Assembly (NCBI GenBank): GCA_965215565.1
Contig: CBDCDZ010000004.1
Span: forward strand, 4,128,001 to 4,192,000
Reading direction: 5' to 3'
DNA length: 64,000 nt
Source: Trueperaceae bacterium
Lineage (GTDB): Bacteria > Deinococcota > Deinococci > Deinococcales > Trueperaceae
This document shows positions 4,995 to 55,971 of the stretch, one piece after another. Position 1 is the stretch's first letter. The number at the start of each line of letters is the position of its first letter. The notes under the pieces were generated by a model that saw nothing but the letters and a program-made list of their open reading frames with translations, did not search any database and had not been told where the DNA came from. The position numbers and the translations under genes were made by a program.

Positions 4995-6095
4995 ATGAAA
5001 CGTCGTGATTTTCTAAAAAAAGCGGGTGTCGTCGCTGCTAGCACCTCACTCTCGCCCCTCATGTTCGCGAACGCGCAATCGTCATCGTTCAGCTTCGAGA
5101 TGGTCACGTCGTGGCCTACCTCGCTCGATACGATTTACGGGGGCGCAACCAATACGGCGGCATATTTAGAGGAGTTGACCGACGGTGACGTCACCGTCGA
5201 GGTGTACCCGGCGGGCGCACAGGTCGGTGGCTTAGAGGTCTACGACGCGGTCTCGTCGGGCGCATTCGTGATGGGTCACACGGCGTCGTACTACTACGTC
5301 GGTAAGGACCCCACCCACGCCTTTTTTACCGCCGTGCCGTTCGGTCTCAACGCGCAGCAGATGAACGCCTGGTTCTATCAGGGCGGCGCGCTGGACCTGT
5401 TCAACGAACTCAACGCCAGAGACGGGCTCATCGCGTTCCCGGCGGGTAATACGGGCGTGCAGATGGGCGGCTGGTTCAATCAAGAGATCAACACGCCCGC
5501 TGACTTGCAAGGCTTGACGATGCGCATCCCCGGCTTGGGCGGTCAGGTCATGACCCGCGCGGGCGCGAACGTGCAGGTCATCCCTGGTGGCGAAATCTTC
5601 CTAGCGCTCGACACAGGCGTGATTGACGCCGCCGAGTGGATTGGACCCTACGACGATGAGATTTTAGGGCTTAACACCGCTGCGCAGTTCTACTACGCTC
5701 CCGGCTGGCACGAGCCCGGTCCGTCGCTCGCCACCTATATCAACCTGAGCGAGTACGAGAGCTTACCCGCCGACATTCAACAAGCGATTCAGAAAGCCTC
5801 GGCGCGCGCCAACTTGCAGATGCTCGCCGATTACGACGCGAAGAATGGTCCAGCGCTCAACCGCTTAGTCGAGGCGGGCGCACAGCTTCGCGACTTCCCG
5901 GACGAGGTCTTAGTATCTCTGGAAGACGCCATGAACGCCATCCACGAGGAGACCGCCGCCAGCAACGACTTCTACGGACAGGTCTACCAGAACTTCTTGG
6001 GCTTCCGCGACGGCATCCGTGACTGGCACCGGATCAGCGAGTATGCCTACCAGAACTACGTCTACCGCAACGCGGAGGGTAGCAGCGAAGGCTAA
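4995..6095 (+). CDS. TRAP transporter substrate-binding protein (DctP/TakP-like) with Tat signal
   Basis: MKRRDFLKK; MVTSWP, GNTGVQMGGWF, MRIPGLGG, DAAEWIGP and PGWHEPG motifs; GGAGG RBS supports start 4995. Confidence 0.9.
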   Translation: MKRRDFLKKAGVVAASTSLSPLMFANAQSSSFSFEMVTSWPTSLDTIYGGATNTAAYLEELTDGDVTVEVYPAGAQVGGLEVYDAVSSGAFVMGHTASYYYVGKDPTHAFFTAVPFGLNAQQMNAWFYQGGALDLFNELNARDGLIAFPAGNTGVQMGGWFNQEINTPADLQGLTMRIPGLGGQVMTRAGANVQVIPGGEIFLALDTGVIDAAEWIGPYDDEILGLNTAAQFYYAPGWHEPGPSLATYINLSEYESLPADIQQAIQKASARANLQMLADYDAKNGPALNRLVEAGAQLRDFPDEVLVSLEDAMNAIHEETAASNDFYGQVYQNFLGFRDGIRDWHRISEYAYQNYVYRNAEGSSEG

Positions 6096-6109
6096 ACGAA
6101 AGTCTATAG

Positions 6110-6147
6110 TAGGCAGGCTCTCTCTAAGGTTCGGGAGAGCTTGTCTA
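6110..6147 (+). terminator. Probable intrinsic terminator hairpin
   Basis: TAGGCAGGCTCTCT ... GGGAGAGCTTGTCTA imperfect inverted repeat just after the TRAP gene. Confidence 0.55.
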
Positions 6148-6198
6148 ATTTGGATGGAGGCCAACTTCTAAAGCAATTAACATAAGTACTGATTGGAA

Positions 6199-6282
6199 TA
6201 GCGCAAGTATCATTCTCAAATGTGCGTGCTACACGGTGTTCTACATCGTGAGAGCGTCTCAAACCAAATGATACTTGCTATA
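6199..6282. repeat. ~80-bp MITE/REP-like element, copy A
   Basis: GCAAGTATCATT...AATGATACTTGCTATA termini; internal AATGTGCG...GTGAGAGCGTCTCAAACCA shared with four other copies. Confidence 0.8.
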
Positions 6283-6351
6283 GTACTTGAACGCCTCCAA
6301 ACCCTACGCAAACGAACCGCTTTCTCTTCGCGTATGGGCTAGACTAGCATT

Positions 6352-6624
6352 ATGAAAAAAGAGATCAAGCTCGAGGTAGATAAAGAGACCGCCTTAGGAC
6401 GTTACGCCAACGTCGCGATCATCGCCCACACAAAAGACGAATTTATTCTCGACTTCGCGCTCGCCTATCCTGGACAGTCGCCCACGGTGAATTCGCGCAT
6501 CATCACGAGCCCGCAGCACGCCAAAGCGCTCTTGCGGAGCTTAGAGGACAACGTACGTAAATTCGAGGCGCGTCACGGCGCGATTGCGGAGCCCGCGAAG
6601 CGTATAGGCGGCGAGCAAAATTAG
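6352..6624 (+). CDS. DUF3467 family protein
   Basis: GRYANVAIIAHTKDEFILDF...RIITSPQHAKAL; leaderless TAGACT-N6-ATG. Confidence 0.8.
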   Translation: MKKEIKLEVDKETALGRYANVAIIAHTKDEFILDFALAYPGQSPTVNSRIITSPQHAKALLRSLEDNVRKFEARHGAIAEPAKRIGGEQN

Positions 6625-6686
6625 ATACTAGATAGCAGTTCCACTTACTGTTGCTTGAGTGCAACTATGCGAAGCAACACTTTTCC

Positions 6687-6787
6687 ACAGATATCATCCC
6701 CGAAAGTGTGTGCTAGGCGATGTTCTCTTTAGTAAGAGCGTTGCTTCGCATGGCTTCGCCCAAGCTGACCAGATGATACCTGCTATA
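6687..6787. repeat. ~80-bp MITE/REP-like element, copy B (about 20-bp internal insertion)
   Basis: CAGATATCATCC...ACCAGATGATACCTGCTATA. Confidence 0.7.
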
Positions 6788-7051
6788 GAGATAGCAGGAT
6801 GAAGGGGTTCATCCTGTTTCATGTGGTCTCGGGGAGAGGCTCTGCGGATTCCTAAGTTGTGTCCACGAAGAGTGCTGTTGAGGGGATATTAGAGGAGCCG
6901 ATAACGAACCTCTTCTGTCCGCCGCCTTTTTACTCCTGTATTTCTTCAAAACCGCATAAGCGCTAAAAAGTGACGCGAGATTCAGATGCCAGTCACTTTC
7001 CGCTGTTGTTCGGCTTACCCACATCCCCATCTAAGCGAGCTTTAATGAAGT

Positions 7052-7678
7052 ATGTCTGATGTGGTCGTCTACTTCGATTATCTCTGTCCCTTTGCTTGGC
7101 GCGGCGCGGAAGTCGCGCACGTCGTTGAGCGCGAACTCGGTCTCAGCTTCGAGTGGCGGCATTTTAGCCTCTATCAGAGCAACTACAGCAACGATCATGG
7201 TGGTGGCAACGGCTGGCAGCTTTGGAACGACCGCATCGAACCGGAGAGTGACAACGGCAGCAAAGGGCTACTCCCTTTTTTAGCGTCTTGTGCAGCGCGT
7301 CGGCAAGGCCCGGAGCTACATGCCCGCTTCCGCATGGCGCTGATGCGAGCGCGTTACCGTGAGCATAAACCTTATACGCTCACGACGCTTAAAGAGGTAG
7401 CTGGCGCGGTAGGATTACACGTTCCTAAGTTCGAAAGTGACCTCTCTGACCCGGAGTGCCGCACCACCTTAGCGCACGAACACCACCGTGCTGTGGCGCT
7501 AGATGTTTTCGGCACGCCGACTTTTTGTTTTCCGAACGGTCACACGTCGTATTTTCGCATCAACGCGCTACCTCGCAGTGACGAAGAGGCGGTTGACCTC
7601 TTTCAGAGTTACTGGCAGATGTTAGAACGCTATCCCTATTTAGAGACCATTAAGCGCCCGCGCGTCAAAGGGAATTAG
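7052..7678 (+). CDS. DsbA-family (DSBA-like thioredoxin) protein
   Basis: VYFDYLCPFAW and VFGTPTF motifs. Confidence 0.8.
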   Translation: MSDVVVYFDYLCPFAWRGAEVAHVVERELGLSFEWRHFSLYQSNYSNDHGGGNGWQLWNDRIEPESDNGSKGLLPFLASCAARRQGPELHARFRMALMRARYREHKPYTLTTLKEVAGAVGLHVPKFESDLSDPECRTTLAHEHHRAVALDVFGTPTFCFPNGHTSYFRINALPRSDEEAVDLFQSYWQMLERYPYLETIKRPRVKGN

Positions 7679-7697
7679 GCGCGCTTAAATTTTAGCT

Positions 7698-7729
7698 GCG
7701 CCGCTTCGAGGATTTGGAGCGGCGTTTTT
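7698..7729 (+). terminator. Intrinsic terminator
   Basis: GCGCCGCTTC...GGAGCGGCG followed by TTTTT. Confidence 0.7.
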
Positions 7730-7784
7730 CGGAGAGGCTCGAGCCCTCTAGTCCTGATTTTTGTAGCAGGTATCCGTATATTAA

Positions 7785-7925
7785 GAGAAGCGAGGTGATG
7801 CCCAGCAAGTATCAGCTTTAGGGCTAACAGATGAACTGCACACCTCGCTCACTAAGCTACACGGAGCTTGCCTGATACTAAGACGCTTAGTAGCCTCATA
7901 GACGGATAAGCAGCTACCGTGAGCA
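7785..7925 (+). ncRNA. Predicted IS110 bridge RNA (target-binding and donor-binding loops)
   Basis: Stem GCGAGGTG/CACCTCGC encloses AGCAAGTATC and CAGATGA, which match the target; a second stem encloses ATACTAAG and ACGGA, which match the element ends; boundaries approximate. Confidence 0.75.
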
Positions 7926-7943
7926 GCAACCTAAGGAGGTTGT

Positions 7944-8882
7944 ATGGTCATTATAGGGGTTGATCCACATCCGCAGAGCCATACCGCAGCAGCGTTAGAT
8001 AAACAGGGCAAGGTATTAGGTCACTGCACCGTTACGAATACGGCTGAGGGCTTGGCAACTTTGGAGCACTGGATAAAGCGCTATGACGTTCAGCGGTGCG
8101 CTATTGAAGGGGCGAATAACCCCTTTGCTCGGAGGTTGAGTCAAGCGTTGCTCGGGCAGGACCATAAGGTTGTGGACATTAGTCCGAGTCTGACGAGTCA
8201 GTACCGCAGCAAAAGAGGACGCAAGAAGAGTGATGAGGTAGACGCTGAAAACGTAGCTCGGGCTGCTTTGGCTAATCCTGAGCTGACTACGTTTGCACCT
8301 CGGCAAGCGGTTGAAGACCTCAAACATCTGACCCGCACCCGAGAAGCGCTAGCTAAACAGCTTACAGCGCACAAGCTGAGCTTAGCGAGCCTTGAGCTAG
8401 AGGTGGCTCGCCAAGCCGTCGAAGCCGTTATTGCAGTGCTTAAAGAACAACTCAAGACGCTCGAGCAGGCGATGAAAGCCCTCGTTGACGAACTGATGCC
8501 TGAACTCTTAGAGGTCTTTGGCGTCGGCGTCGTTCACGCCGCCACGCTACTTGCTGAAGCAGGTGACATCCGACGCTTTCGTTCACAACACGCCTTTGCC
8601 ATGTATTCAGGTTGTGCGCCTGTCGAGCGCTCTTCTGGTGGTCAGAAGAGAAGGCAACTCAACATCGGCGGCAACCGTCGGCTCAACCGCACCTTTCACA
8701 TGATTGCCCAAGTCAGACTGCGCCACAGCGAACCGACAAGAGCCTATCTCGACAAGAAACAGCAGCAAGGCAAGACCCGCCGGGCTGCTCTAAGAAGTCT
8801 CAAAACCTATCTCGCAAGAGAACTCTTTCGTTTCATGCTGCAAGTCACTCAGCAGCACCCACAGAGGTGGAAGGGGGCTTGA
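7944..8882 (+). CDS. IS110 family transposase (DEDD recombinase)
   Basis: IIGVDPH, AIEG and KSDEVDA (DEDD); C-terminal AMYSGCAPVERSSGG and GNRRLNR; AAGGAGG RBS. Confidence 0.95.
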   Translation: MVIIGVDPHPQSHTAAALDKQGKVLGHCTVTNTAEGLATLEHWIKRYDVQRCAIEGANNPFARRLSQALLGQDHKVVDISPSLTSQYRSKRGRKKSDEVDAENVARAALANPELTTFAPRQAVEDLKHLTRTREALAKQLTAHKLSLASLELEVARQAVEAVIAVLKEQLKTLEQAMKALVDELMPELLEVFGVGVVHAATLLAEAGDIRRFRSQHAFAMYSGCAPVERSSGGQKRRQLNIGGNRRLNRTFHMIAQVRLRHSEPTRAYLDKKQQQGKTRRAALRSLKTYLARELFRFMLQVTQQHPQRWKGA

Positions 8883-8898
8883 CAACTCTATACTAAGT

Positions 8899-8968
8899 TC
8901 ATCTGGTTTGAGACACTCTCACTCTAAAAAGCAGCGTTTAGGACGCACATTGTGAGATGATACCTGCG
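8899..8968 (-). repeat. MITE/REP-like element copy C, main part (its other tip is at 7762-7774)
   Basis: Reverse complement reads CGCAGGTATCATCTCACAATGTGCGTCCTAAACG...GTGAGAGTGTCTCAAACCAGATGA. Confidence 0.85.
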
Positions 8969-9054
8969 GCGTTCTGTCTCAGTATATTTTGGAACTGCTA
9001 TTGAAATTGCGTAACGGGAGCCGTGTTCAACACATCCTCCTAATGAATCAACGG

Positions 9055-9083
9055 TTGACACCTTCTATACTGCTCGGTATACT
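9055..9083 (+). promoter_or_regulatory. Sigma70 promoter of tetR with overlapping operator
   Basis: TTGACA-17-TATACT, 7 nt before the GTG start; palindrome TATACTGCTCGGTATA at 9066-9081. Confidence 0.75.
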
Positions 9084-9090
9084 CGTTGGT

Positions 9091-9678
9091 GTGATAGAGA
9101 CACCGACTACCCTAGAGCCGCGCTCGCGCCTCTTGTGCTGCGCGCTTCACCTCTTCGCTGAGCACGGCTACGACGCAGTTGGGGTGCAGCGCGTGGTCGA
9201 AGCGGCGGGCGTGACGAAGCCGACGCTCTATCATCACTTCGGGAACAAGCTGGGGCTCTTGGAGGCTCTTCTACAAACTCACTTCGACCCCCTCAACGAG
9301 AGACTGCAACGCGCCGCCGCCTATCACCGCGATTTACCGCAAACGCTAGAACAGTTCAGCAGTACCTATATAACGCTGTCACTCAACGAGCCGGACTTCT
9401 CCAGACTGCGCCTCACCCTCTGGTTCGCCCCGCCGGGCAGCGAAGCGTTTCGCGCGGTTGCGCCCTGGTTAGAACGTCAGGAGAAACTCGTCGCTGAGCT
9501 TTTTGAGCAGGCATCGCAAGACCACGGCAACATGCGCTCTCGGCAGCTTACGCTGGCCTCGAGCTTCTTAGGTACGCTCAACACTTACGTTGGCTTATCG
9601 CTCAACGGATACTTGAATCTAAATGATGAGACCCGCCACCAGATGTTGCGTCAATATATGTACGGCATCTTCTCGTGA
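9091..9678 (+). CDS. TetR/AcrR family transcriptional regulator
   Basis: LFAEHGYDAVGVQRVVEAAGVTKPTLYHHFGNK HTH; start placed at a leaderless GTG. Confidence 0.88.
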   Translation: MIETPTTLEPRSRLLCCALHLFAEHGYDAVGVQRVVEAAGVTKPTLYHHFGNKLGLLEALLQTHFDPLNERLQRAAAYHRDLPQTLEQFSSTYITLSLNEPDFSRLRLTLWFAPPGSEAFRAVAPWLERQEKLVAELFEQASQDHGNMRSRQLTLASSFLGTLNTYVGLSLNGYLNLNDETRHQMLRQYMYGIFS

Positions 9679-12021: not shown

Positions 12022-12191
12022 TGGTTTAAGTGTAAGGGGTTTTTGGACGACTCGAGGTGTTCACAGCGATAAGCATTTTAGCCAGTCAGCGAGTCAGCCA
12101 GTCAGGAAAATCTTAAAACCTGAAGTGCTGATGAGCTGAGACGCTGCTTTCTCGCTTGCAGCCGCGCCGCGCAAGCGCGTATCCTAAAGCT

Positions 12192-12446
12192 ATGACCGTC
12201 GAACTCACTCCCGCGCAAGAAGCGCTGATTCAAGAGCAGCTCGAGGCGGGGCGCTATCATTCCCGCACCGAAGCGATTGCCGAAGCGTTAGAGCTGCTGA
12301 GCGACCACCTCCGGCTCGAGCAGATGAAGTTAGAGCGGCTACGCGCCGAGATTCAAAAGGGCTTGGATAGTGGCGAGAGCACGCCGCTCGATATGGACGC
12401 GATTAAAGCAGAAGCGCGGAGACGCTACAACGAACGCAAGCGGTAA
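12192..12446 (+). CDS. ParD-like antitoxin (addiction module antidote)
   Basis: GRYHSRTEAIAEALELL...LRAEIQKGLDSG; leaderless TATCCT-N6-ATG. Confidence 0.85.
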   Translation: MTVELTPAQEALIQEQLEAGRYHSRTEAIAEALELLSDHLRLEQMKLERLRAEIQKGLDSGESTPLDMDAIKAEARRRYNERKR

Positions 12447-12742
12447 TGCCGGTTGTTCTCAGACGCTCCGAAGCCGAGCTTGACCTGTTTTTTATATGGG
12501 AGCGCGTCAGCTTAGAAGACCCTGACGTAGCTGACCGTATTCTGGACCAGCTCGAAGCGCAGTTTAACCTCATCGCAACGCAACCGCTTATGGGGCGAGA
12601 GAGGCCGGAGCTAGCTCCGCAACTACGCAGCTTTACAGGGGCTCGCTACATCATTTTCTACTTACCTCTCGAGGACGGCATCAACGTTGTGAGAGTCTTA
12701 GATGGACGGCAGAATATAAGCCGTGAATTCGGTGAGCGCTAA
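12446..12742 (+). CDS. RelE/ParE family toxin
   Basis: AELDL..IW, PLMGRERPELAPQLRSF, YIIFY and VVRVLDG motifs; TAATG coupling to the antitoxin. Confidence 0.88.
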   Translation: MPVVLRRSEAELDLFFIWERVSLEDPDVADRILDQLEAQFNLIATQPLMGRERPELAPQLRSFTGARYIIFYLPLEDGINVVRVLDGRQNISREFGER

Positions 12743-17203: not shown

Positions 17204-17270
17204 CCCCTCTCAAAACGTTCTTTCGGCATTTCAAGCGGCGTTGGAGTCGGGCGGTAGAGCCTCGAGCCTC
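17204..17270 (-). repeat. Array-1 junction repeat S1
   Basis: GGCTCGAGGCTCTACCGCCCGACTCCAACGCCGCTTGA...AACGTTTTGAGA on the minus strand (reads RLEALPPDSNAA*). Confidence 0.85.
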
Positions 17271-17466
17271 AACTCACGCGCTGAGAGTCCGTGTCAGATT
17301 CTTTAACCACAGGCGTAACGCGCTTGGCAGGAAAGGACACGAAAACATCCTCGCTTTGCTCTTCTCGAGCTTGCAAGTCAGCGACAATCGCCTCGAGGTC
17401 ATAGTCAAACTTTTCGGCGTGTTCTTCACGAATACGCCTCACTTCTGCAACGATAGGGTCATCCAT
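17269..17466 (-). CDS. Small putative antitoxin downstream of a PIN toxin
   Basis: DPIVAEVRRIREEHA..FDYDL; overlaps the PIN gene stop. Confidence 0.6.
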   Translation of the reverse strand: MDDPIVAEVRRIREEHAEKFDYDLEAIVADLQAREEQSEDVFVSFPAKRVTPVVKESDTDSQRVS

Positions 17467-17941
17467 CCTCTACCTCCTTGAGTTCTTCGGGTGTGCAAAT
17501 AACGGACGGTTCGTAGCCTTCAGCGCGGCAGAGCGCTTCAATTTTGGCCCTGATTGTCGCATTCGCAATATGTTTGAGGTTCCAGGTCATGAGATAGTCT
17601 ATTCCGTTGGTCGTAGCGAGGGCGATGTGTAGGGCATCTTCGGACGCTTTTGGAGGAATCAGCGCTTGACTCATGATGGCTTTGGCTAACTCGAGTGCGT
17701 CTTGCTTCGTTGGTAAAAGGGGTAGTCCGTTCAGTGCTTGTAACCGTTTCTGAGCAGCACTTTTGTCACCACCGCCCGCCTCGTCTTTGACAAGCTGAGA
17801 GATGAAGAGGTCAAAGTGGGGTCTGCTGTCGAGCCACCAGTCTTGCGTCACTTGTTGATAGGCAGCCGTAACCAAATCTCTGCTAGGTCTGGCTGTTAAA
17901 TAGCTGATGACCGTAGTTTCGATGTAGACCTTCGGCTTCAC
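17459..17941 (-). CDS. PIN-domain (VapC-like) toxin
   Basis: VYIETTVISYL, SQLVKDE, DALHIALA and LMTWNLKHI motifs. Confidence 0.85.
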   Translation of the reverse strand: MKPKVYIETTVISYLTARPSRDLVTAAYQQVTQDWWLDSRPHFDLFISQLVKDEAGGGDKSAAQKRLQALNGLPLLPTKQDALELAKAIMSQALIPPKASEDALHIALATTNGIDYLMTWNLKHIANATIRAKIEALCRAEGYEPSVICTPEELKEVEDG

Positions 17942-17967
17942 GCCTTTATTTTACTCTATAGTTTCAA

Positions 17968-18032
17968 TCCCATCTCAAAACGTTCTTCCAGCGTTTCAGG
18001 TGGCGTCGGAATCGGGCGGTAGAGCCTCGAGC
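17968..18032 (-). repeat. Array-1 junction repeat S2
   Basis: GCTCGAGGCTCTACCGCCCGATTCCGACGCCACCTGA...AACGTTTTGAGA (reads LEALPPDSDAT*). Confidence 0.85.
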
Positions 18033-18062
18033 AACGCCCCTAGCGCTTTTGACCTTTCCCAG

Positions 18063-18533
18063 TTATGACAAGAGGTTCCGCTGCCGCAGATGATTGAAGT
18101 TTTGCGCTGAGTATCCCAAATTGCTCGCCTCGAGGTAAAGGTTGAGGTCATCCGTAAGCAAGGAAGAAGGTTTTGCACTGAGATGCTCGAGCATCGCGCA
18201 ATCTGTGACACCTAAACGCACAAACGCTCTGTGCCGAGAAGCCACCTTCGATTCGATATGTTCTTCATCAATCGCTTGAATGGTTAGAGCAAGTTGCCGC
18301 ATCAACTCTGAGCGGACAGGCTCCCCGATCTGCGCAACGAGGTTCGACGTTTCTGCTAAAACTTGTGACGTGGTTGAGACCTTTGGAGCGTTGCGTACGA
18401 TCTCAATAAGTAAGTCGAGATCATCTTTTGTGAACGTTTTTGTACGTTTGTGACGTTCGATGAGACTTCTGTCTAAGCTCCCGACGACGAATAGGACCAA
18501 GAGGTTTGTGTCAAGAAGAATCGCACTCGTCAC
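18063..18533 (-). CDS. PIN-domain protein
   Basis: ILLDTNLLVL, VLAETSNL, LGVTD and LLTDDLNL motifs. Confidence 0.78.
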   Translation of the reverse strand: MTSAILLDTNLLVLFVVGSLDRSLIERHKRTKTFTKDDLDLLIEIVRNAPKVSTTSQVLAETSNLVAQIGEPVRSELMRQLALTIQAIDEEHIESKVASRHRAFVRLGVTDCAMLEHLSAKPSSLLTDDLNLYLEASNLGYSAQNFNHLRQRNLLS

Positions 18534-18817
18534 GCCGCAGCTAGACTAACATCTCTATTCTTGACCGCCTTGACGACTCCCGTTTCGTCGTCAATATGTA
18601 CGACTTTGAAAGACCGTTTCGGCACGTTCGCGCCTGCTAGTTCCGCGATTCTATTTTGAGGGTAATCCCAAGGTCTGGAAAATCCGACGGTAACGAGCCA
18701 TCTTCCTGACTCATCATCAAATTCGACCTCTTCTAAACCAATATGGGAAAGCGATTCTGATTCGTATAGACTTTTGATATACTCGAGGGCAGTTTGTACA
18801 GCAGCTTTGACTTGCAT
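18530..18817 (-). CDS. Hypothetical protein translationally coupled to the PIN gene
   Basis: GTGA overlap with the PIN gene; AAGGAG RBS; LEEVEFD..WLVTVGF motif. Confidence 0.65.
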   Translation of the reverse strand: MQVKAAVQTALEYIKSLYESESLSHIGLEEVEFDDESGRWLVTVGFSRPWDYPQNRIAELAGANVPKRSFKVVHIDDETGVVKAVKNRDVSLAAA

Positions 18818-18878
18818 GAGTCGTTCTCCTTCCTGGTCTAAAGGCGTTAGCGCAGTAGGTTAATTATAGACCAATCAC

Positions 18879-18971
18879 TCAACCAACCTCCCGCGCCCCC
18901 AACTCCCTCTTAAAGCTCAACGCTTCAGGCGGCGTTGGCGTCGGGCGGCAGAGCCTCGAGCCTCTCAAAAC
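18879..18971 (-). repeat. Array-1 junction repeat S3
   Basis: Reads FERLEALPPDANAA* and then SFKRELGAREVG*, the C-terminus of the DUF2442 pseudogene. Confidence 0.85.
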
Positions 18972-18976
18972 AGACT

Positions 18977-29693: not shown

Positions 29694-29777
29694 GCCCGCG
29701 AAACGAGGTGAAGGTGATGCCATAGCACTTCCACAACATACTGAGACAGATGAGCGCAGATCTCTGTCCGTAAGGAC

Positions 29778-29860
29778 TAGCGGGATTTCATCTCAGAATG
29801 TGCGTTCTAAACGATGTTCTCTACAGTGGGAGTGTCTCCAACCAGATGATACCTGCTATA
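29778..29860. repeat. ~80-bp MITE/REP-like element, copy D
   Basis: TCATCTCAGAATGTGCGTTCTAAACG...GAGTGTCTCCAACCAGATGATACCTGCTATA. Confidence 0.8.
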
Positions 29861-36911: not shown

Positions 36912-36965
36912 GCCGCACACTCCCGCTAAGTGGAGCAACATAGATTCTAGGCTGAGGTTGAATCA

Positions 36966-37046
36966 CGCAAGTATCATCCTTCAACGTGCGAGCTAAAAAG
37001 TGCTTTATCTACTGAGAGCGTTCGTGACCAGATAATACCTGCTATA
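36966..37046. repeat. ~80-bp MITE/REP-like element, copy E
   Basis: CGCAAGTATCATCC...TGAGAGCG...ACCAGATAATACCTGCTATA. Confidence 0.75.
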
Positions 37047-52543: not shown

Positions 52544-52572
52544 AGACATTGTAGCACTGAGGGTTGGAGAGG

Positions 52573-52712
52573 TTAGCTCGAGCCGTAATACCGCAACGCC
52601 ACGATATGCAGCTCATTTCCCTGTACGCGGTAAACCAGCCTGTGTCCATCCGTAATGCGCTGTAACCACCAGCCGGAGAGGTTGTATTTTAGCGCTCTGG
52701 GTTTGCCTAGCC
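52573..52712 (-). pseudogene. Txe/YoeB toxin C-terminal remnant (junction repeat R2)
   Basis: Reads LGKPRALKYNLSGWWLQRITDGHRLVYRVQGNELHIVALRYYGSS*. Confidence 0.85.
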
Positions 52713-52713
52713 A

Positions 52714-54411
52714 TCAAGTATTGAAAGGGGCTTTCCAAACTGTCGTAGCTAAATCGGCTAATTTTTCTTGTCGTTTTTTAAGCGTTAGTGGTGTCCACTC
52801 GTTATATATACTTCTCTCACTCGTTAGCTTGTAAACGCTTTCTCTGTAAATAGGAAGCTTCTGCTCATAAGGCTTGTTGGCACACACCTTATTTTTCTGC
52901 GGTTCAAGTAAGGTTAGGTTGCCTATTCTTTGCGTCGCTTTATCTTGCTCTTCCGGTGAAAAGAAAACGCCCCAGGCTTCCGAAGCATTTTCAGGTAATA
53001 TGTGCTCTATTGTAGCTTTCATGTTGTCACTGTAATCATACGCCGTAGAAGCCAGTTGGTTTTCAAGCTCAAAGAGAATATAGCGTATTAAATTATTGTT
53101 ACGCTGGAGTGTTTTTAGAGCAAAGTTAGCTTTGAACCGCTCGTCATCTATGTAGATAGATTTTAGCTCTGTAAAAATATTGCTAGCATTTGCTAAACGT
53201 CCCGAAGTCACCTTGACGGCTGCTCTATGGTAAACATCCTCGAGAAGGTTGGGGTTCAGTCCGCTAATGACATTGTAGCGAAAAGAGATAGCAACGCAGA
53301 GCCTTAACAACTTAGTAAACTCTTGAGAGTCGAGCTTTCGGTAGGCGGCGAGGAGAAGAGGATAGCACTGCCTAACTCTAAAAAGGTCAAGTGCATCTAT
53401 CCACTTGACCTGCTCTTTCTCCCAAAGGTCATCAGCAGGTTTCGATAGCGCGACAAATACTTCAACGAGGTCTTCTAAATCTTCTAGGAGACTAAAGACG
53501 CTCTCTCTAGTCGTGATAGTTGATTTTATTGCCTTAAACAGTGTTTGCTTGCGCTGAAAAGAATATTTTGAATTCCAGTAATAGCGTAGAAAAGAAGGAA
53601 AGTCCTTATTGCTCAAACTGTCGTTGATGCTCTGCCACTGTCTTTCCGCCTCTTCAAGGTCCGCCTCACCTCCTCTAGCAGCAACGGAGAAGAGGAAATT
53701 TTTAAGTAGGTCTGTCGTTGAGAGACGCACGCCTCGAGCGTTGAGCGTCTCAAAAACCTTATAAGCATTGAGGTCATCTGCCACTGTTATTGTTGTAAAA
53801 ACTAGTTTATCGGCTACCGTCTTCTCTAGGAACTCTGTAAGCATAGCGCCATCTCGTTCATCCTCGAACCGCTCTTTAAGTCGCTCGTAAAGATATTCGA
53901 GAGCTTCCCAAAGTAGCCTTTGAGACGGTTTCAATTTGCGTCTATTCGTGGGAGGACGCAAACGCAGTAAGCGACTTTGATAAAAGTCATCATTGTTGCG
54001 ATTCAGAAAAAGCTTGCTTCTCAACATTAGTGAAGAGACATCTGTTTGACTGATAAACCTGCTCGTTAAGAGTTCTTGACGTTGCTGATTCTGATCTGAC
54101 GAAATTCCTTCATCTGCCCAATCTCCTAATAGCTTGATGACAGCAAGTACTAAAATACTGAGTGTTGTGATTCGCTGCTGCCCATCAATAATAATGAAAT
54201 TGCGGTTGTCATCGCTCTGCAAAACTACGTAGCCCATGTAGTGAAAGGTTTCTTCTCCCCTGGAGACCTCTAAAATATCCAGCCACAGGTCTTCCCACTG
54301 TTCCTCTGCCCATGAGTAATCACGCTGATAAGGAGGAACCCTAAAAACCCGCCCATTACTTATGAGATCATTGAAAGTGGCTGTGCCTGTAGGTAAAAGA
54401 ACCGTTGCCAT
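52714..54411 (-). CDS. DUF262-DUF1524 (GmrSD-like) HNH nuclease
   Basis: VPPYQRDYSW, IDGQQR, FETLNARG, IEHILP and IGNLTLL..N motifs; low GC. Confidence 0.88.
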   Translation of the reverse strand: MATVLLPTGTATFNDLISNGRVFRVPPYQRDYSWAEEQWEDLWLDILEVSRGEETFHYMGYVVLQSDDNRNFIIIDGQQRITTLSILVLAVIKLLGDWADEGISSDQNQQRQELLTSRFISQTDVSSLMLRSKLFLNRNNDDFYQSRLLRLRPPTNRRKLKPSQRLLWEALEYLYERLKERFEDERDGAMLTEFLEKTVADKLVFTTITVADDLNAYKVFETLNARGVRLSTTDLLKNFLFSVAARGGEADLEEAERQWQSINDSLSNKDFPSFLRYYWNSKYSFQRKQTLFKAIKSTITTRESVFSLLEDLEDLVEVFVALSKPADDLWEKEQVKWIDALDLFRVRQCYPLLLAAYRKLDSQEFTKLLRLCVAISFRYNVISGLNPNLLEDVYHRAAVKVTSGRLANASNIFTELKSIYIDDERFKANFALKTLQRNNNLIRYILFELENQLASTAYDYSDNMKATIEHILPENASEAWGVFFSPEEQDKATQRIGNLTLLEPQKNKVCANKPYEQKLPIYRESVYKLTSERSIYNEWTPLTLKKRQEKLADLATTVWKAPFNT

Positions 54412-54518
54412 CTATATGTTGATTCTACAAAAGTATTGTGTATTCTGTCTGCAAGTCAGCGTCATACGCTTTTGGTAGATGCTCGAGCATCGTTTCCTCA
54501 CCTCTTTACTTCCGAGCG

Positions 54519-54633
54519 TTGGCTCGAGCCGTGATACCGCAACGCCACGATATGCAGCTCAGTTAGATTTTCTCTTTTCAAAGTCTCGAGTCGCTTCTAA
54601 GAGGCGTTCGGCGTTGGCGGGGCTGCGCAGCAA
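54519..54633 (-). repeat. Array-2 junction repeat R3 (yefM 3' end fused to yoeB 3' end)
   Basis: Nearly identical to 55699-55813; reads LLRSPANAERLLEATRDFEKRKSN* and then ELHIVALRYHGSS. Confidence 0.9.
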
Positions 54634-54649
54634 ATGGTATGTCTAAAGT

Positions 54650-54931
54650 GTGCCGTTCGAACTGACGATTGCGCCAAGTATCGAAGAGAAGATTTGGACG
54701 AAGCACCGCGTTTTACCTGACGAGGTTCGCGAAACGCTAGACGACCCTACCCTGCGGCGCTTTCTCGTTAAGCGCAACCGTAAAGCGAGGGAGATAACCT
54801 ACCTGTATGTAGGATTGACCTATACGGATAGGCTCTTGAGGTCTATCATCATCCACAAGCCGGACGGGTCAGCCTACCTAAAGACCTCACTTGATGCGTT
54901 CAAGCAAGACCGAATCGGCTATAATAGGTAA
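54650..54931 (+). CDS. BrnT-like toxin (putative)
   Basis: EKIWTKH.V...EVRE, YLYVGLT...RLL pattern; paired with a small acidic protein. Confidence 0.6.
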   Translation: MPFELTIAPSIEEKIWTKHRVLPDEVRETLDDPTLRRFLVKRNRKAREITYLYVGLTYTDRLLRSIIIHKPDGSAYLKTSLDAFKQDRIGYNR

Positions 54932-54933
54932 AG

Positions 54934-55116
54934 ATGAGTGACGTTCTAAATCGCCGCGATACTGAGCACAGAGTCATCACCGACCCCGAGGACTTGCCCA
55001 ACTTCGACCTCATGTCGGATGATGAGGTTATGGCATGGTGGGAGCGTCATGAGGTCAGCGCGGAGATTCTAGCCTCTTTGGAAGACACGGGCGAAGAGAT
55101 AGACTTCGACTTTTAG
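54934..55116 (+). CDS. Short acidic antitoxin-like protein (CopG/BrnA N-terminal-like)
   Basis: LPNF..MSDDE..AWWERHEV pattern; lacks a C-terminal RHH. Confidence 0.5.
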   Translation: MSDVLNRRDTEHRVITDPEDLPNFDLMSDDEVMAWWERHEVSAEILASLEDTGEEIDFDF

Positions 55117-55168
55117 GGCGAATAGGGCTGAAAACTTTTGAAGTGTGGGCTCGAGCCAGGTTTGAGGG

Positions 55169-55211
55169 TTAGCTCGAGCCTCAATACCGCAACGCCACCG
55201 TATGAGACTCA
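55169..55211 (-). repeat. Array-2 junction repeat R4 (yoeB 3' end)
   Basis: TTAGCTCGAGCCTCAATACCGCAACGCCAC, identical to the start of R5. Confidence 0.85.
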
Positions 55212-55460
55212 ACTTATCAGCCTGTCATACTCAGCGTGGCTACCAATCCAGACCCAGATGAAATCGTCGCCGTCTTTCACGGCTAAAGCTCGGTAGCTGA
55301 GACCAACGCGCACCGACCAATAACCACCCACTTCCTTGAAATGCAGCGACGGATGCCTAGGGTTCTCTTTAAGCAGCTCGAAGTTCTTACGGGCAAGTCT
55401 TTGAACGTTTTCACTCAGCGCATCAAAACGCTTCCAAAACTGCGGCGTAGTGCGGTGCAC
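55209..55460 (-). CDS. RelE-superfamily toxin
   Basis: FWKRFDAL, NPRHPSLHFK, WSVRVGLSYRAL and WIGSHAEYD motifs. Confidence 0.82.
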   Translation of the reverse strand: MHRTTPQFWKRFDALSENVQRLARKNFELLKENPRHPSLHFKEVGGYWSVRVGLSYRALAVKDGDDFIWVWIGSHAEYDRLIS

Positions 55461-55661
55461 CTACAAGTCCCGCAGTTCACCCTTGGCTTTAGCCGCCTTC
55501 GCCTCTTCCCGCAGAAACTCGAGTTTGCCCGCCGCCGCATCCTTCTCTATCTGCTCATCCCACTGTCGCCAATCTCTTTCGGCGAACCATTCGCGCAGAT
55601 GGATAAAGTCTTCGGCTGGTAAGGCTTCAATTTCGGCTTTGAGATGATCAACTTGAGACAT
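55461..55661 (-). CDS. Putative antitoxin
   Basis: 66 aa, WDEQIEKDAAAGKL; directly upstream of the toxin; leaderless TATAAT-N5-ATG. Confidence 0.72.
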   Translation of the reverse strand: MSQVDHLKAEIEALPAEDFIHLREWFAERDWRQWDEQIEKDAAAGKLEFLREEAKAAKAKGELRDL

Positions 55662-55698
55662 AGGTGATTATACGCGAAGTTAGAGAAGAGGTCAGGTT

Positions 55699-55971
55699 TT
55701 AGCTCGAGCCTCAATACCGCAACGCCACGACATGCAGCTCAGTTAGATTTTCTCTTTTCAAAGTCTCGAGTCGCTTCTAAGAGGCGTTCGGCGTTAGCGG
55801 GGCTACGCAGTAAGACCATTGTCTCCTGCCGAGCGTTCCAATCGTCCAAGCTCATCATGACCACAGCCTTGTCGCTGCCTTTGGTGATGATGAGGGGGTG
55901 TGGTCGTCCACAACCTCATCTACTGCGTTGGCTAGGTTCTTGCGGGCTGTGGTGTAACCGAGGATTTTCGT
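55699..55971 (-). pseudogene. YefM/Phd antitoxin pseudogene plus yoeB 3' end (junction repeat R5)
   Basis: ACG in place of ATG; YTTARKNLANAVDEVVDDHTP / -1 frameshift / IITKGSDKAVVMMSLDDWNARQETMVLLRSPANAERL. Confidence 0.85.

Follow-up and report, generated by a model that had tools for sequence, protein, structure and literature searches.

A TC-core IS110 element with a predicted left-end bridge RNA occupies a dispersed MITE-like repeat in a Trueperaceae genome

The window analysed here, a stretch of 64,000 nucleotides of Trueperaceae DNA, carries an IS110 element inserted 9 bases inside the left end of a dispersed repeat, within the site GCAGGTA-TC-ATCTG. The repeat is about 111 bp long (7764-7774 plus 8901-9000), runs from TAGCAG to CTGCTA, contains an inner inverted arm, formed by positions 3-15 and 66-78, and may hold optional internal modules. 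The original prediction had described an 80-bp repeat; that unit corresponds to the inner palindrome of the longer one. The four further copies that it had reported in the window were recovered, and all of the motifs that it quoted, including AGCAAGTATC (7804-7813), CAGATGA (7828-7834), ACGGA (7902-7906) and CTTAGTA (7886-7892), lie where it had placed them. The element, its recombinase and the repeat copies are arranged as follows.

7761..7763, + strand: left 3-bp duplication TTG flanking the host repeat (3-bp duplications are common genome-wide)
7764..7772, + strand: left end of the 111-bp repeat, with the left target GCAGGTA at 7766-7772
7773..7774, + strand: left copy of the TC core (9/9 left junctions; 56/58 distinct homolog left ends)
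7775-8900, + strand: IS110 element, 1,126 bp, whose excision restores the repeat
7944..8882, + strand: IS110 recombinase, 312 aa, with D7, E55, D97, D100 and S231-G232 (Pfam PF01548 and PF02371)
8901..9000, + strand: remainder of the repeat, with the right target ATCTG (8901-8905), the inner inverted arm and the right end ...GAACTGCTA
9001..9003, + strand: right 3-bp duplication TTG
6170..6280, - strand: unoccupied repeat copy, A/T variant
6634..6785, - strand: unoccupied repeat copy with internal insert, G variant
29723..29858, - strand: unoccupied repeat copy with internal insert, G variant
36950..37044, - strand: unoccupied repeat copy, more diverged

Two of the window copies had been assigned to the A variant. 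The assignment holds for the copy at 6280, in which ATTTG is a further departure from the right guide; at 37044 the left end reads G, and the A of that copy is located in the inner arm. Just past the occupied repeat, 9055-9083 contains a near-consensus promoter (TTGACA-17-TATACT) upstream of a TetR-family gene. Adjacent ORFs of 96 aa and 98 aa at 12156-12742 resemble a ParD/ParE-type antitoxin-toxin pair. Two other dispersed repeat families, unrelated to the target repeat, are present at 17204-18976 (79 nt, 3 copies) and 52572-55813 (47-115 nt, 4 copies).

Removal of 7775-8900 from the window sequence rejoins TAGCAGGTA-TC-ATCTGG, as originally proposed, and the rejoined repeat is identical to a copy at G000:C4:1601194 over the 92 bases compared. 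The genome (G000) holds seven full copies of 1,126 bp, six of them identical and one with a single base change, and each is flanked by TAGCAGGTA-TC and ATCTGG. When all copies were mapped genome-wide, a check that the original prediction had suggested, TAGCAGGTA preceded TC at 9/9 left junctions and TC preceded ATCTGG at 8/8 right junctions, counts that take in two left-end remnants and one damaged copy besides the full copies; unrelated sites were not encountered. A 92%-identical ortholog in a second genome (G002) occupies the same repeat site, and a further genome (G001) shares with the window site the upstream gene only. One contig of run X1 passes from the unique left flank into the repeat, omitting exactly 1,126 bases, with 2 ambiguous. 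Because its short side comprises 20 letters and X1 may be the assembly's own source, we regard this contig as a hint of an empty allele, not as independent proof. A joint between the right and left ends, as in a circle, was absent from the contigs of four runs, which drop rare forms. Overall, the element is an intact and recently spread IS110-group insertion sequence.

Several related loci show irregularities of their own. The 92% ortholog (L002, G002:C2:567375) contains about 80 extra bases just past its start codon and is probably interrupted as a result. An eighth copy in G000 (L272, C4:3452692-3453285) has many small deletions, with a stretch of the repeat duplicated on both sides; since contigs of runs X1 and X2 carry its missing letters, it is probably a mis-assembled intact copy. 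At C4:3341785 and C4:160174, copies of the repeat contain the first 20-27 bases of the left end of the element and then the repeat again, and these remnants are likely to be deletion scars. A second IS110 element of the clade (L273, C4:421041-421970; 56% identity) has an in-frame stop and its own readable guides. It is adjoined downstream by a broken transposase-like frame, presumably IS630-like to judge from its motif.

The recombinase has an N-terminal DEDD RuvC domain (PF01548) and a C-terminal PF02371 domain with the catalytic serine, the combination that identifies an IS110 recombinase, and scores 171 bits against NCBIfam NF033542 (cut-off 140). D7, E55, D97, D100 and S231-G232 align with D11, E60, D102, D105 and S241-G242 of IS621; among 74 homologs D7, E55, D100 and G232 are invariant, and D97 and S231 are at least 90% conserved. 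The predicted model (pLDDT 91.9) has its best structure match in IS621 (8WT6; TM 0.72, 25% identity), and the only two sequence matches in the PDB are IS621 and ISCro4. Its closest named homologs are from Trueperaceae and Deinococcus. A single-protein search of the genome contigs returned no relative, although an alignment-based search did. Its 312 aa, originally judged compact, fall at the low end of the published range of 300-460 aa (PMC11208160; here and below, papers are cited for the accessible parts of their text) and are not unusually few. As expected of the IS110 family, the element is without terminal inverted repeats, has a short core at both ends and uses one specific target. The predicted RNA in the left end (169 nt), the right end of 16 nt plus core and the 3-bp ATA/TAT subterminal repeat place it in the IS110 group and not in the IS1111 group, as these are defined in PMC11208160.

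The left end likely encodes a two-loop bridge RNA, as judged from its predicted fold. Folding gave z = -3.6, none of 200 shuffles being as stable, and a search of 5900-9200 against Rfam up to E = 1 gave 0 matches. The predicted guides and the donor sequences that they would read are as follows.

7790..7848, + strand: predicted loop holding the target guides, closed by the stem GCGAGGTG (7790-7797) / CACCTCGC (7841-7848); fold, compensatory changes
7805..7813, + strand: predicted left target guide GCAAGUAUC, 9 nt (7 target bases plus core); best register -7, mean 7.56/9
7828..7836, + strand: predicted right target guide CAGAUGA (7828-7834) with handshake AC (7835-7836); guide-target and handshake covariation
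7862..7919, + strand: predicted donor-binding loop; fold, compensatory changes
7875..7882, + strand: predicted left donor guide AUACUAAG; agrees with donor -9 to -2, ending 1 nt before the core
7898..7908, + strand: predicted right donor guide AU (7898-7899), AG looped out, ACGGA (7902-7906), with handshake UA (7907-7908)
7775..7782, + strand: right donor CGTAT (7775-7779) and predicted -10 box TATATT (7777-7782); function by analogy with IS621
8879..8884, + strand: predicted -35 box TTGACA, which joins the -10 box only at the end junction, with an 18-nt spacer
8890..8900, + strand: left donor ATACTAAGT (8890-8898), followed by the TC core in its right copy (8899-8900)

The left target guide had been drawn at 7804-7813; the guide itself stands but comprises the 9 nt at 7805-7813, as position 7804 matches in only 6/32 guides. 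It is mismatched at position 4 against every occupied site. The motif ATACTAAG is present at both 7875-7882 and 8890-8897. Most homologs do not retain the pairing with CTTAGTA that had been raised as an alternative for the donor guide. The right donor guide is likely to be discontinuous, as in the IS621 layout (PMC11208158). Handshake AC is complementary to donor bases -1 and -2, and handshake UA to target bases -1 and -2. Joining of the two ends gives TTGACA-18-TATATT, and 43/44 reconstructed junctions have at least 9/12 consensus matches.

To compare guides with targets we used 198 loci plus the window, 131 of them with a match of at least 41% identity; after removal of duplicates and of loci without a recognizable left end, 69 rows remained, representing 58 distinct left ends. 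The consensus fold of 29 of the 58 (the longest were left out) contains two stem-enclosed loops, each split by a hairpin. In the stems 94.5% of cells are paired, as against 27-45% in slid controls, and 19/22 pairs show compensatory change, including 13/13 pairs in the outer stem of 7790..7848 (29 homologs). The core reads TC at 56/58 left and 43/43 right junctions of distinct homologs, the motif used to find left ends leaving the core free, and this agrees with the TC core originally proposed.

Guides also covary with targets, as the original prediction had required. The left target guide matches its own flank at 5.28/7 non-core bases compared with 2.58 after permutation (32 distinct guides), and the right target guide matches its own target at 4.22/5 compared with 1.70 (18 distinct guides); in each case 0/10,000 permutations did as well, although such counts are not true probabilities and overstate independence because the homologs are kin. 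The left guide fits its own site poorly in four homologs (L032, L035, L091 and L113; 2-6/10), with L032 offset by one base. Natural retargeting is seen most clearly in a 75% ortholog (G273), of which 3/3 copies occupy the same repeat 3 nt further right, and both guides, AGGUAGCAUC and GACCAGA, are shifted. The nucleotide that follows the right target guide complements donor base -1 in 43/43 cases, with A-T, T-A and G-C pairs all present, and the one that follows the right donor guide complements target base -1 in 53/56. Against the pre-exchange partner this complementarity is found in only 2/56 and 1/43, respectively. The handshake mechanism is as described in PMC11208158, and since the handshake bases pair with base 7 of the partner, TC occupies positions 8-9.

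The donor loop differs from this picture in one respect. Whereas the left target guide holds the IS621 register across the homologs, the left donor guide matches at 7.74/8 in register -9 compared with 1.12/8 in register -7, that of IS621 (42 left ends). Among 20 distinct pairs, base -1 matches in 4/20, the core T in 14/20 (not in the window element) and the core C in 0/20. Because related motifs served to locate both the ends and the donor guides, conserved columns are inflated; the guide segment is also apparent in an unguided alignment. That the donor guide misses the core had been listed as a caveat; it is real, and a conserved property of the clade rather than a flaw. An EGANN loop is conserved in the clade where IS621 has EATG, and we infer that it sets the TC preference.

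The target repeat is abundant, with 547 hits in a profile search of the genome, 399 of which extend to the left end. Identical 3-bp flanks were found in 146/284 left-right pairs no more than 400 bp apart, as against a shuffled mean of 8.3 and a maximum of 19. The left-end motif is present in 21/128 genomes of the family (a tally that includes the unpublished G329), and 3 of 12 G001/G002 repeat copies examined are clearly absent from the orthologous G000 site. Short, non-coding, high in copy number, duplication-flanked and polymorphic in presence, the repeat has the characteristics of a MITE. The original prediction had treated the target as a dispersed repeat of the host; on account of the 3-bp duplications and the presence or absence at orthologous sites, we consider it mobile and MITE-like. 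It is a candidate MITE rather than an established one, because a mobilizer was not found and the ends are unequally conserved.

Neither the multi-copy regions of G000 nor the duplication-flanked end pairs contained an autonomous partner. As a candidate mobilizer we discarded PF07592 (presumably ISAzo13), which is present in 9/128 genomes of the family and not in G000, and whose ends differ. PF01797 was likewise discarded, since its sole match is located in a methylase gene and the surrounding 7 kb on either side are free of repeat copies. That match, a Y1 transposase domain at 3786234-3786551 (G000:C4:3788276, minus strand), is in frame in a protein of 1,189 aa resembling a restriction-modification methylase. 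REP/REPIN sequences have a GTAG-type tag and a flanking Y1 (RAYT) transposase gene. Such an identity was rejected here, as the base before TAG is A in 43, T in 22, G in 17 and C in 6 of 88 cases and there is no Y1 neighbour. A pseudoknot or ribozyme reading was also set aside, since column coupling tracks subfamilies and the only helix of more than 5 pairs is 3-15/66-78. The search for a plasmid match was negative, and 8 viral hits were dismissed as 17-mer matches without the rest of the repeat.

Searching with the 14-mer defined by the guides, at no more than one mismatch, yields 295 sites (234 of the G variant, 52 of the A/T variant, 2 perfect and 7 other). All insertions lie in the G variant, which is mismatched at left-guide position 4; in IS621 a mismatch at that guide position is tolerated (PMC11208160). 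A preference for this variant need not be invoked, as abundance alone suffices (P = 0.24). It is likely that the G-variant sites, about 240 in all and at a non-coding repeat, provide a large supply of harmless landing sites. In G000 the left end of the repeat also occurs in head-to-tail duplications, with units of 19-27 bp that each contain the IS110 target word (C4:179865-179946, 1994338-1994430, 2634254-2634301 and others); similar duplications are found in G265 and G005.

From the evidence presented thus far, it is very probable that a bridge RNA encoded in the left end would direct the DEDD/serine recombinase to insert a circular form of the element at GCAGGTA-TC-ATCTG. Sequence comparison provides its boundaries, its single site, the two-loop fold with its compensatory changes and the covariation of guides and handshake bases, and the mechanistic steps are modelled on IS621. 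Besides the poorly fitting homologs, two points weigh on the other side. The natural site is mismatched at left-guide position 4 in every copy, with only two perfect sites in existence, and the left donor guide lacks core pairing, unlike IS621, in which the core takes part in all four pairings (PMC11208160). The first of these fits a view, which we consider unlikely, that RNA pairing alone is insufficient and that the repeat end must in addition offer a structure or a feature read by the protein, as reported for ISPpu10, which uses a target stem-loop (10.64898/2026.03.19.712850). In keeping with such a requirement, the target lies in the arm that pairs with the inner inverted copy, with covariation at two positions. 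However, use of the mismatched variant is expected from its abundance, the one repeat copy tested as DNA folds no better than shuffles (z = -0.13), and homologs with changed guides use unrelated targets. The second point could mean that target choice is RNA-guided but that 7875-7882 is not a working guide, the left donor being read by protein through the ATA subterminal repeat so that only the right donor guide pairs. Conservation is far higher in the donor than in the target, and the matched columns of 7875-7882 are accordingly mostly invariant, and missing the core sets this segment apart from IS621. We nevertheless regard this as improbable, because two variable columns covary in the -9 register (T/T 4 and C/C 14 of 20; A/A 5 and G/G 14 of 20) and because the segment occupies the slot of the left target guide, between the GCYNN linker and the GC hairpin.

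A separate question concerns the repeat. It is possible, although we lean away from it, that the repeat is an asymmetric element moved by a nuclease or single-strand mechanism and not a DDE-moved MITE. Its terminal inversion comprises only 6-7 bases; in comparisons across genera conservation extends over the left 20 nt, whereas little beyond GCTA is retained at the right end, the left end forms the tandem units described above, and a transposase-bearing version was not found in G000. Against this, the 3-bp direct duplications are far above chance, and presence or absence at orthologous sites of congeneric genomes is the pattern of a transposon. The bridge-RNA reading of the IS110 element is supported, and it came through the computational attempts at refutation.

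In the mechanism that we propose for bridge-RNA-directed insertion, rare excision or copy-out would join the ends and complete TTGACA-18-TATATT, leading to more bridge RNA and recombinase. For IS621, the literature disagrees on excision versus copy-out of the donor (10.64898/2026.08.31.748434; 10.1101/2025.10.25.684509). In the target loop, 9 nt would pair with the bottom strand, an rA:dC mismatch at position 4 being tolerated, and 7 nt with the top strand. In the donor loop, the left guide would pair with donor bases -9 to -2, so that on that strand base -1 and the core would lack a pairing partner and may be held by protein, and the right guide would pair with TCCGT plus AT. The top strands would be cut after the TC core and then exchanged. 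All four handshake bases (AC and UA) would mismatch before the exchange and pair after it, favouring insertion over excision.

Homologs of the recombinase also occur at the ends of IS6 elements. Among the 66 rows with a full left flank, 24 start like IS6 inverted repeats, a pattern chosen after they had been viewed, and in 7 rows an IS6-like reading frame is directly downstream. The homologs L004, L044, L045, L049, L060, L061 and L100 are inserted in IS6-family elements, 7 bases into the terminal inverted repeat. For L004 the IS6 identity was confirmed, the inverse repeat being present at the far end, and for L049 it was partly confirmed. On balance we favour the view that the clade (homologs in Deinococcota, Acidobacteriota and Chloroflexota, 41-100% identity) uses a TC core and a 9+2+5 donor window, with a left donor guide that stays clear of the crossover bases, that it is specialized on the ends of mobile elements (IS6 inverted repeats and the undescribed 111-bp repeat) with guides sliding along the same repeat, and that its core and donor geometry is orthogonal to that of IS621 and ISCro4.

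The general mechanism of bridge recombination is already known, as are repeat targeting and natural retargeting (PMC11187229). According to a survey covering 32,190 bridge RNAs, deviant structures are numerous (10.64898/2026.10.21.760802), and the clade may therefore already sit in such sets. In our literature search we found no text on the window element, on bridge systems with a TC core, on displacement of the left donor guide, on the target repeat or on IS6-end targeting; such registers may appear in figures (Extended Data Fig. 10c of PMC11208160 and Fig. S12 in 10.64898/2026.10.21.760802) or in bioRxiv supplements. The readable part of the PMC11208160 supplements contains no match for two donor motifs, Truepera or Deinococcus. 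IS621 and ISCro4, whose structures are solved, prefer T at the second core position, which limits programmable sites. An ortholog that has a TC core, a natural right target guide of 7 nt and handshake bases predicted to favour insertion is thus a candidate to widen the programming range, and its displaced donor guide bears on whether strand exchange needs donor pairing through the core. In biological terms, this would be an RNA-guided element parasitizing the end of another mobile element.

The closest known systems are IS621 of E. coli and ISCro4/IS622 (10.1101/2025.05.14.653916), which the element resembles in domains, catalytic residues, fold (TM 0.72) and, by prediction, a left-end two-loop RNA. 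The likeness extends to the 9-nt and 7-nt target guides, the position-4 mismatch, the discontinuous right donor guide, the ATA...TAT spacing around the donor core, the handshake bases, the junction promoter sequence (predicted here) and the use of a repeat as target. Protein identity with IS621 is nevertheless about 25%. The core is TC here, whereas that of IS621 is CT with a near-invariant second T read by G63 (PMC11208158), and the left donor guide, which omits the core, begins at base -9 and not, as in IS621, at base -7. The window element would form four handshake pairs after exchange and none before, compared with three and one in IS621 (PMC13626964), and its target is a duplication-flanked mobile repeat where that of IS621 is a REP. 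It agrees with the IS110 group in every feature open to testing; since it departs from IS621 in core sequence and in the presence of the core in all four pairings, we consider it a variant rather than an IS621-type member.

Insertion into the end of another mobile element, seen here and in the IS6-targeting homologs, recalls IS4321 and IS5075 of the IS1111 group, which reportedly have Tn21's terminal inverted repeats as their target. These have their RNA in the right end and long subterminal repeats, in contrast to the left-end RNA and 3-bp subterminal repeat found here. Correia, RUP and ERIC are MITEs of 100-200 bp, non-coding and present in hundreds of copies, with terminal inverted bases, a flanking duplication and internal modules. 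The target repeat is like them, as generally described, in size, copy number, terminal inversion, duplication and modules; they are TA-flanked, however, while its 3-bp duplications vary in sequence and its two ends differ greatly in conservation. Finally, ISPpu9 and ISPpu10 of Pseudomonas putida likewise have several copies that all lie in one intergenic palindromic repeat, ISPpu10 combining a CT core with a 5' stem-loop target where the window element has a TC core.
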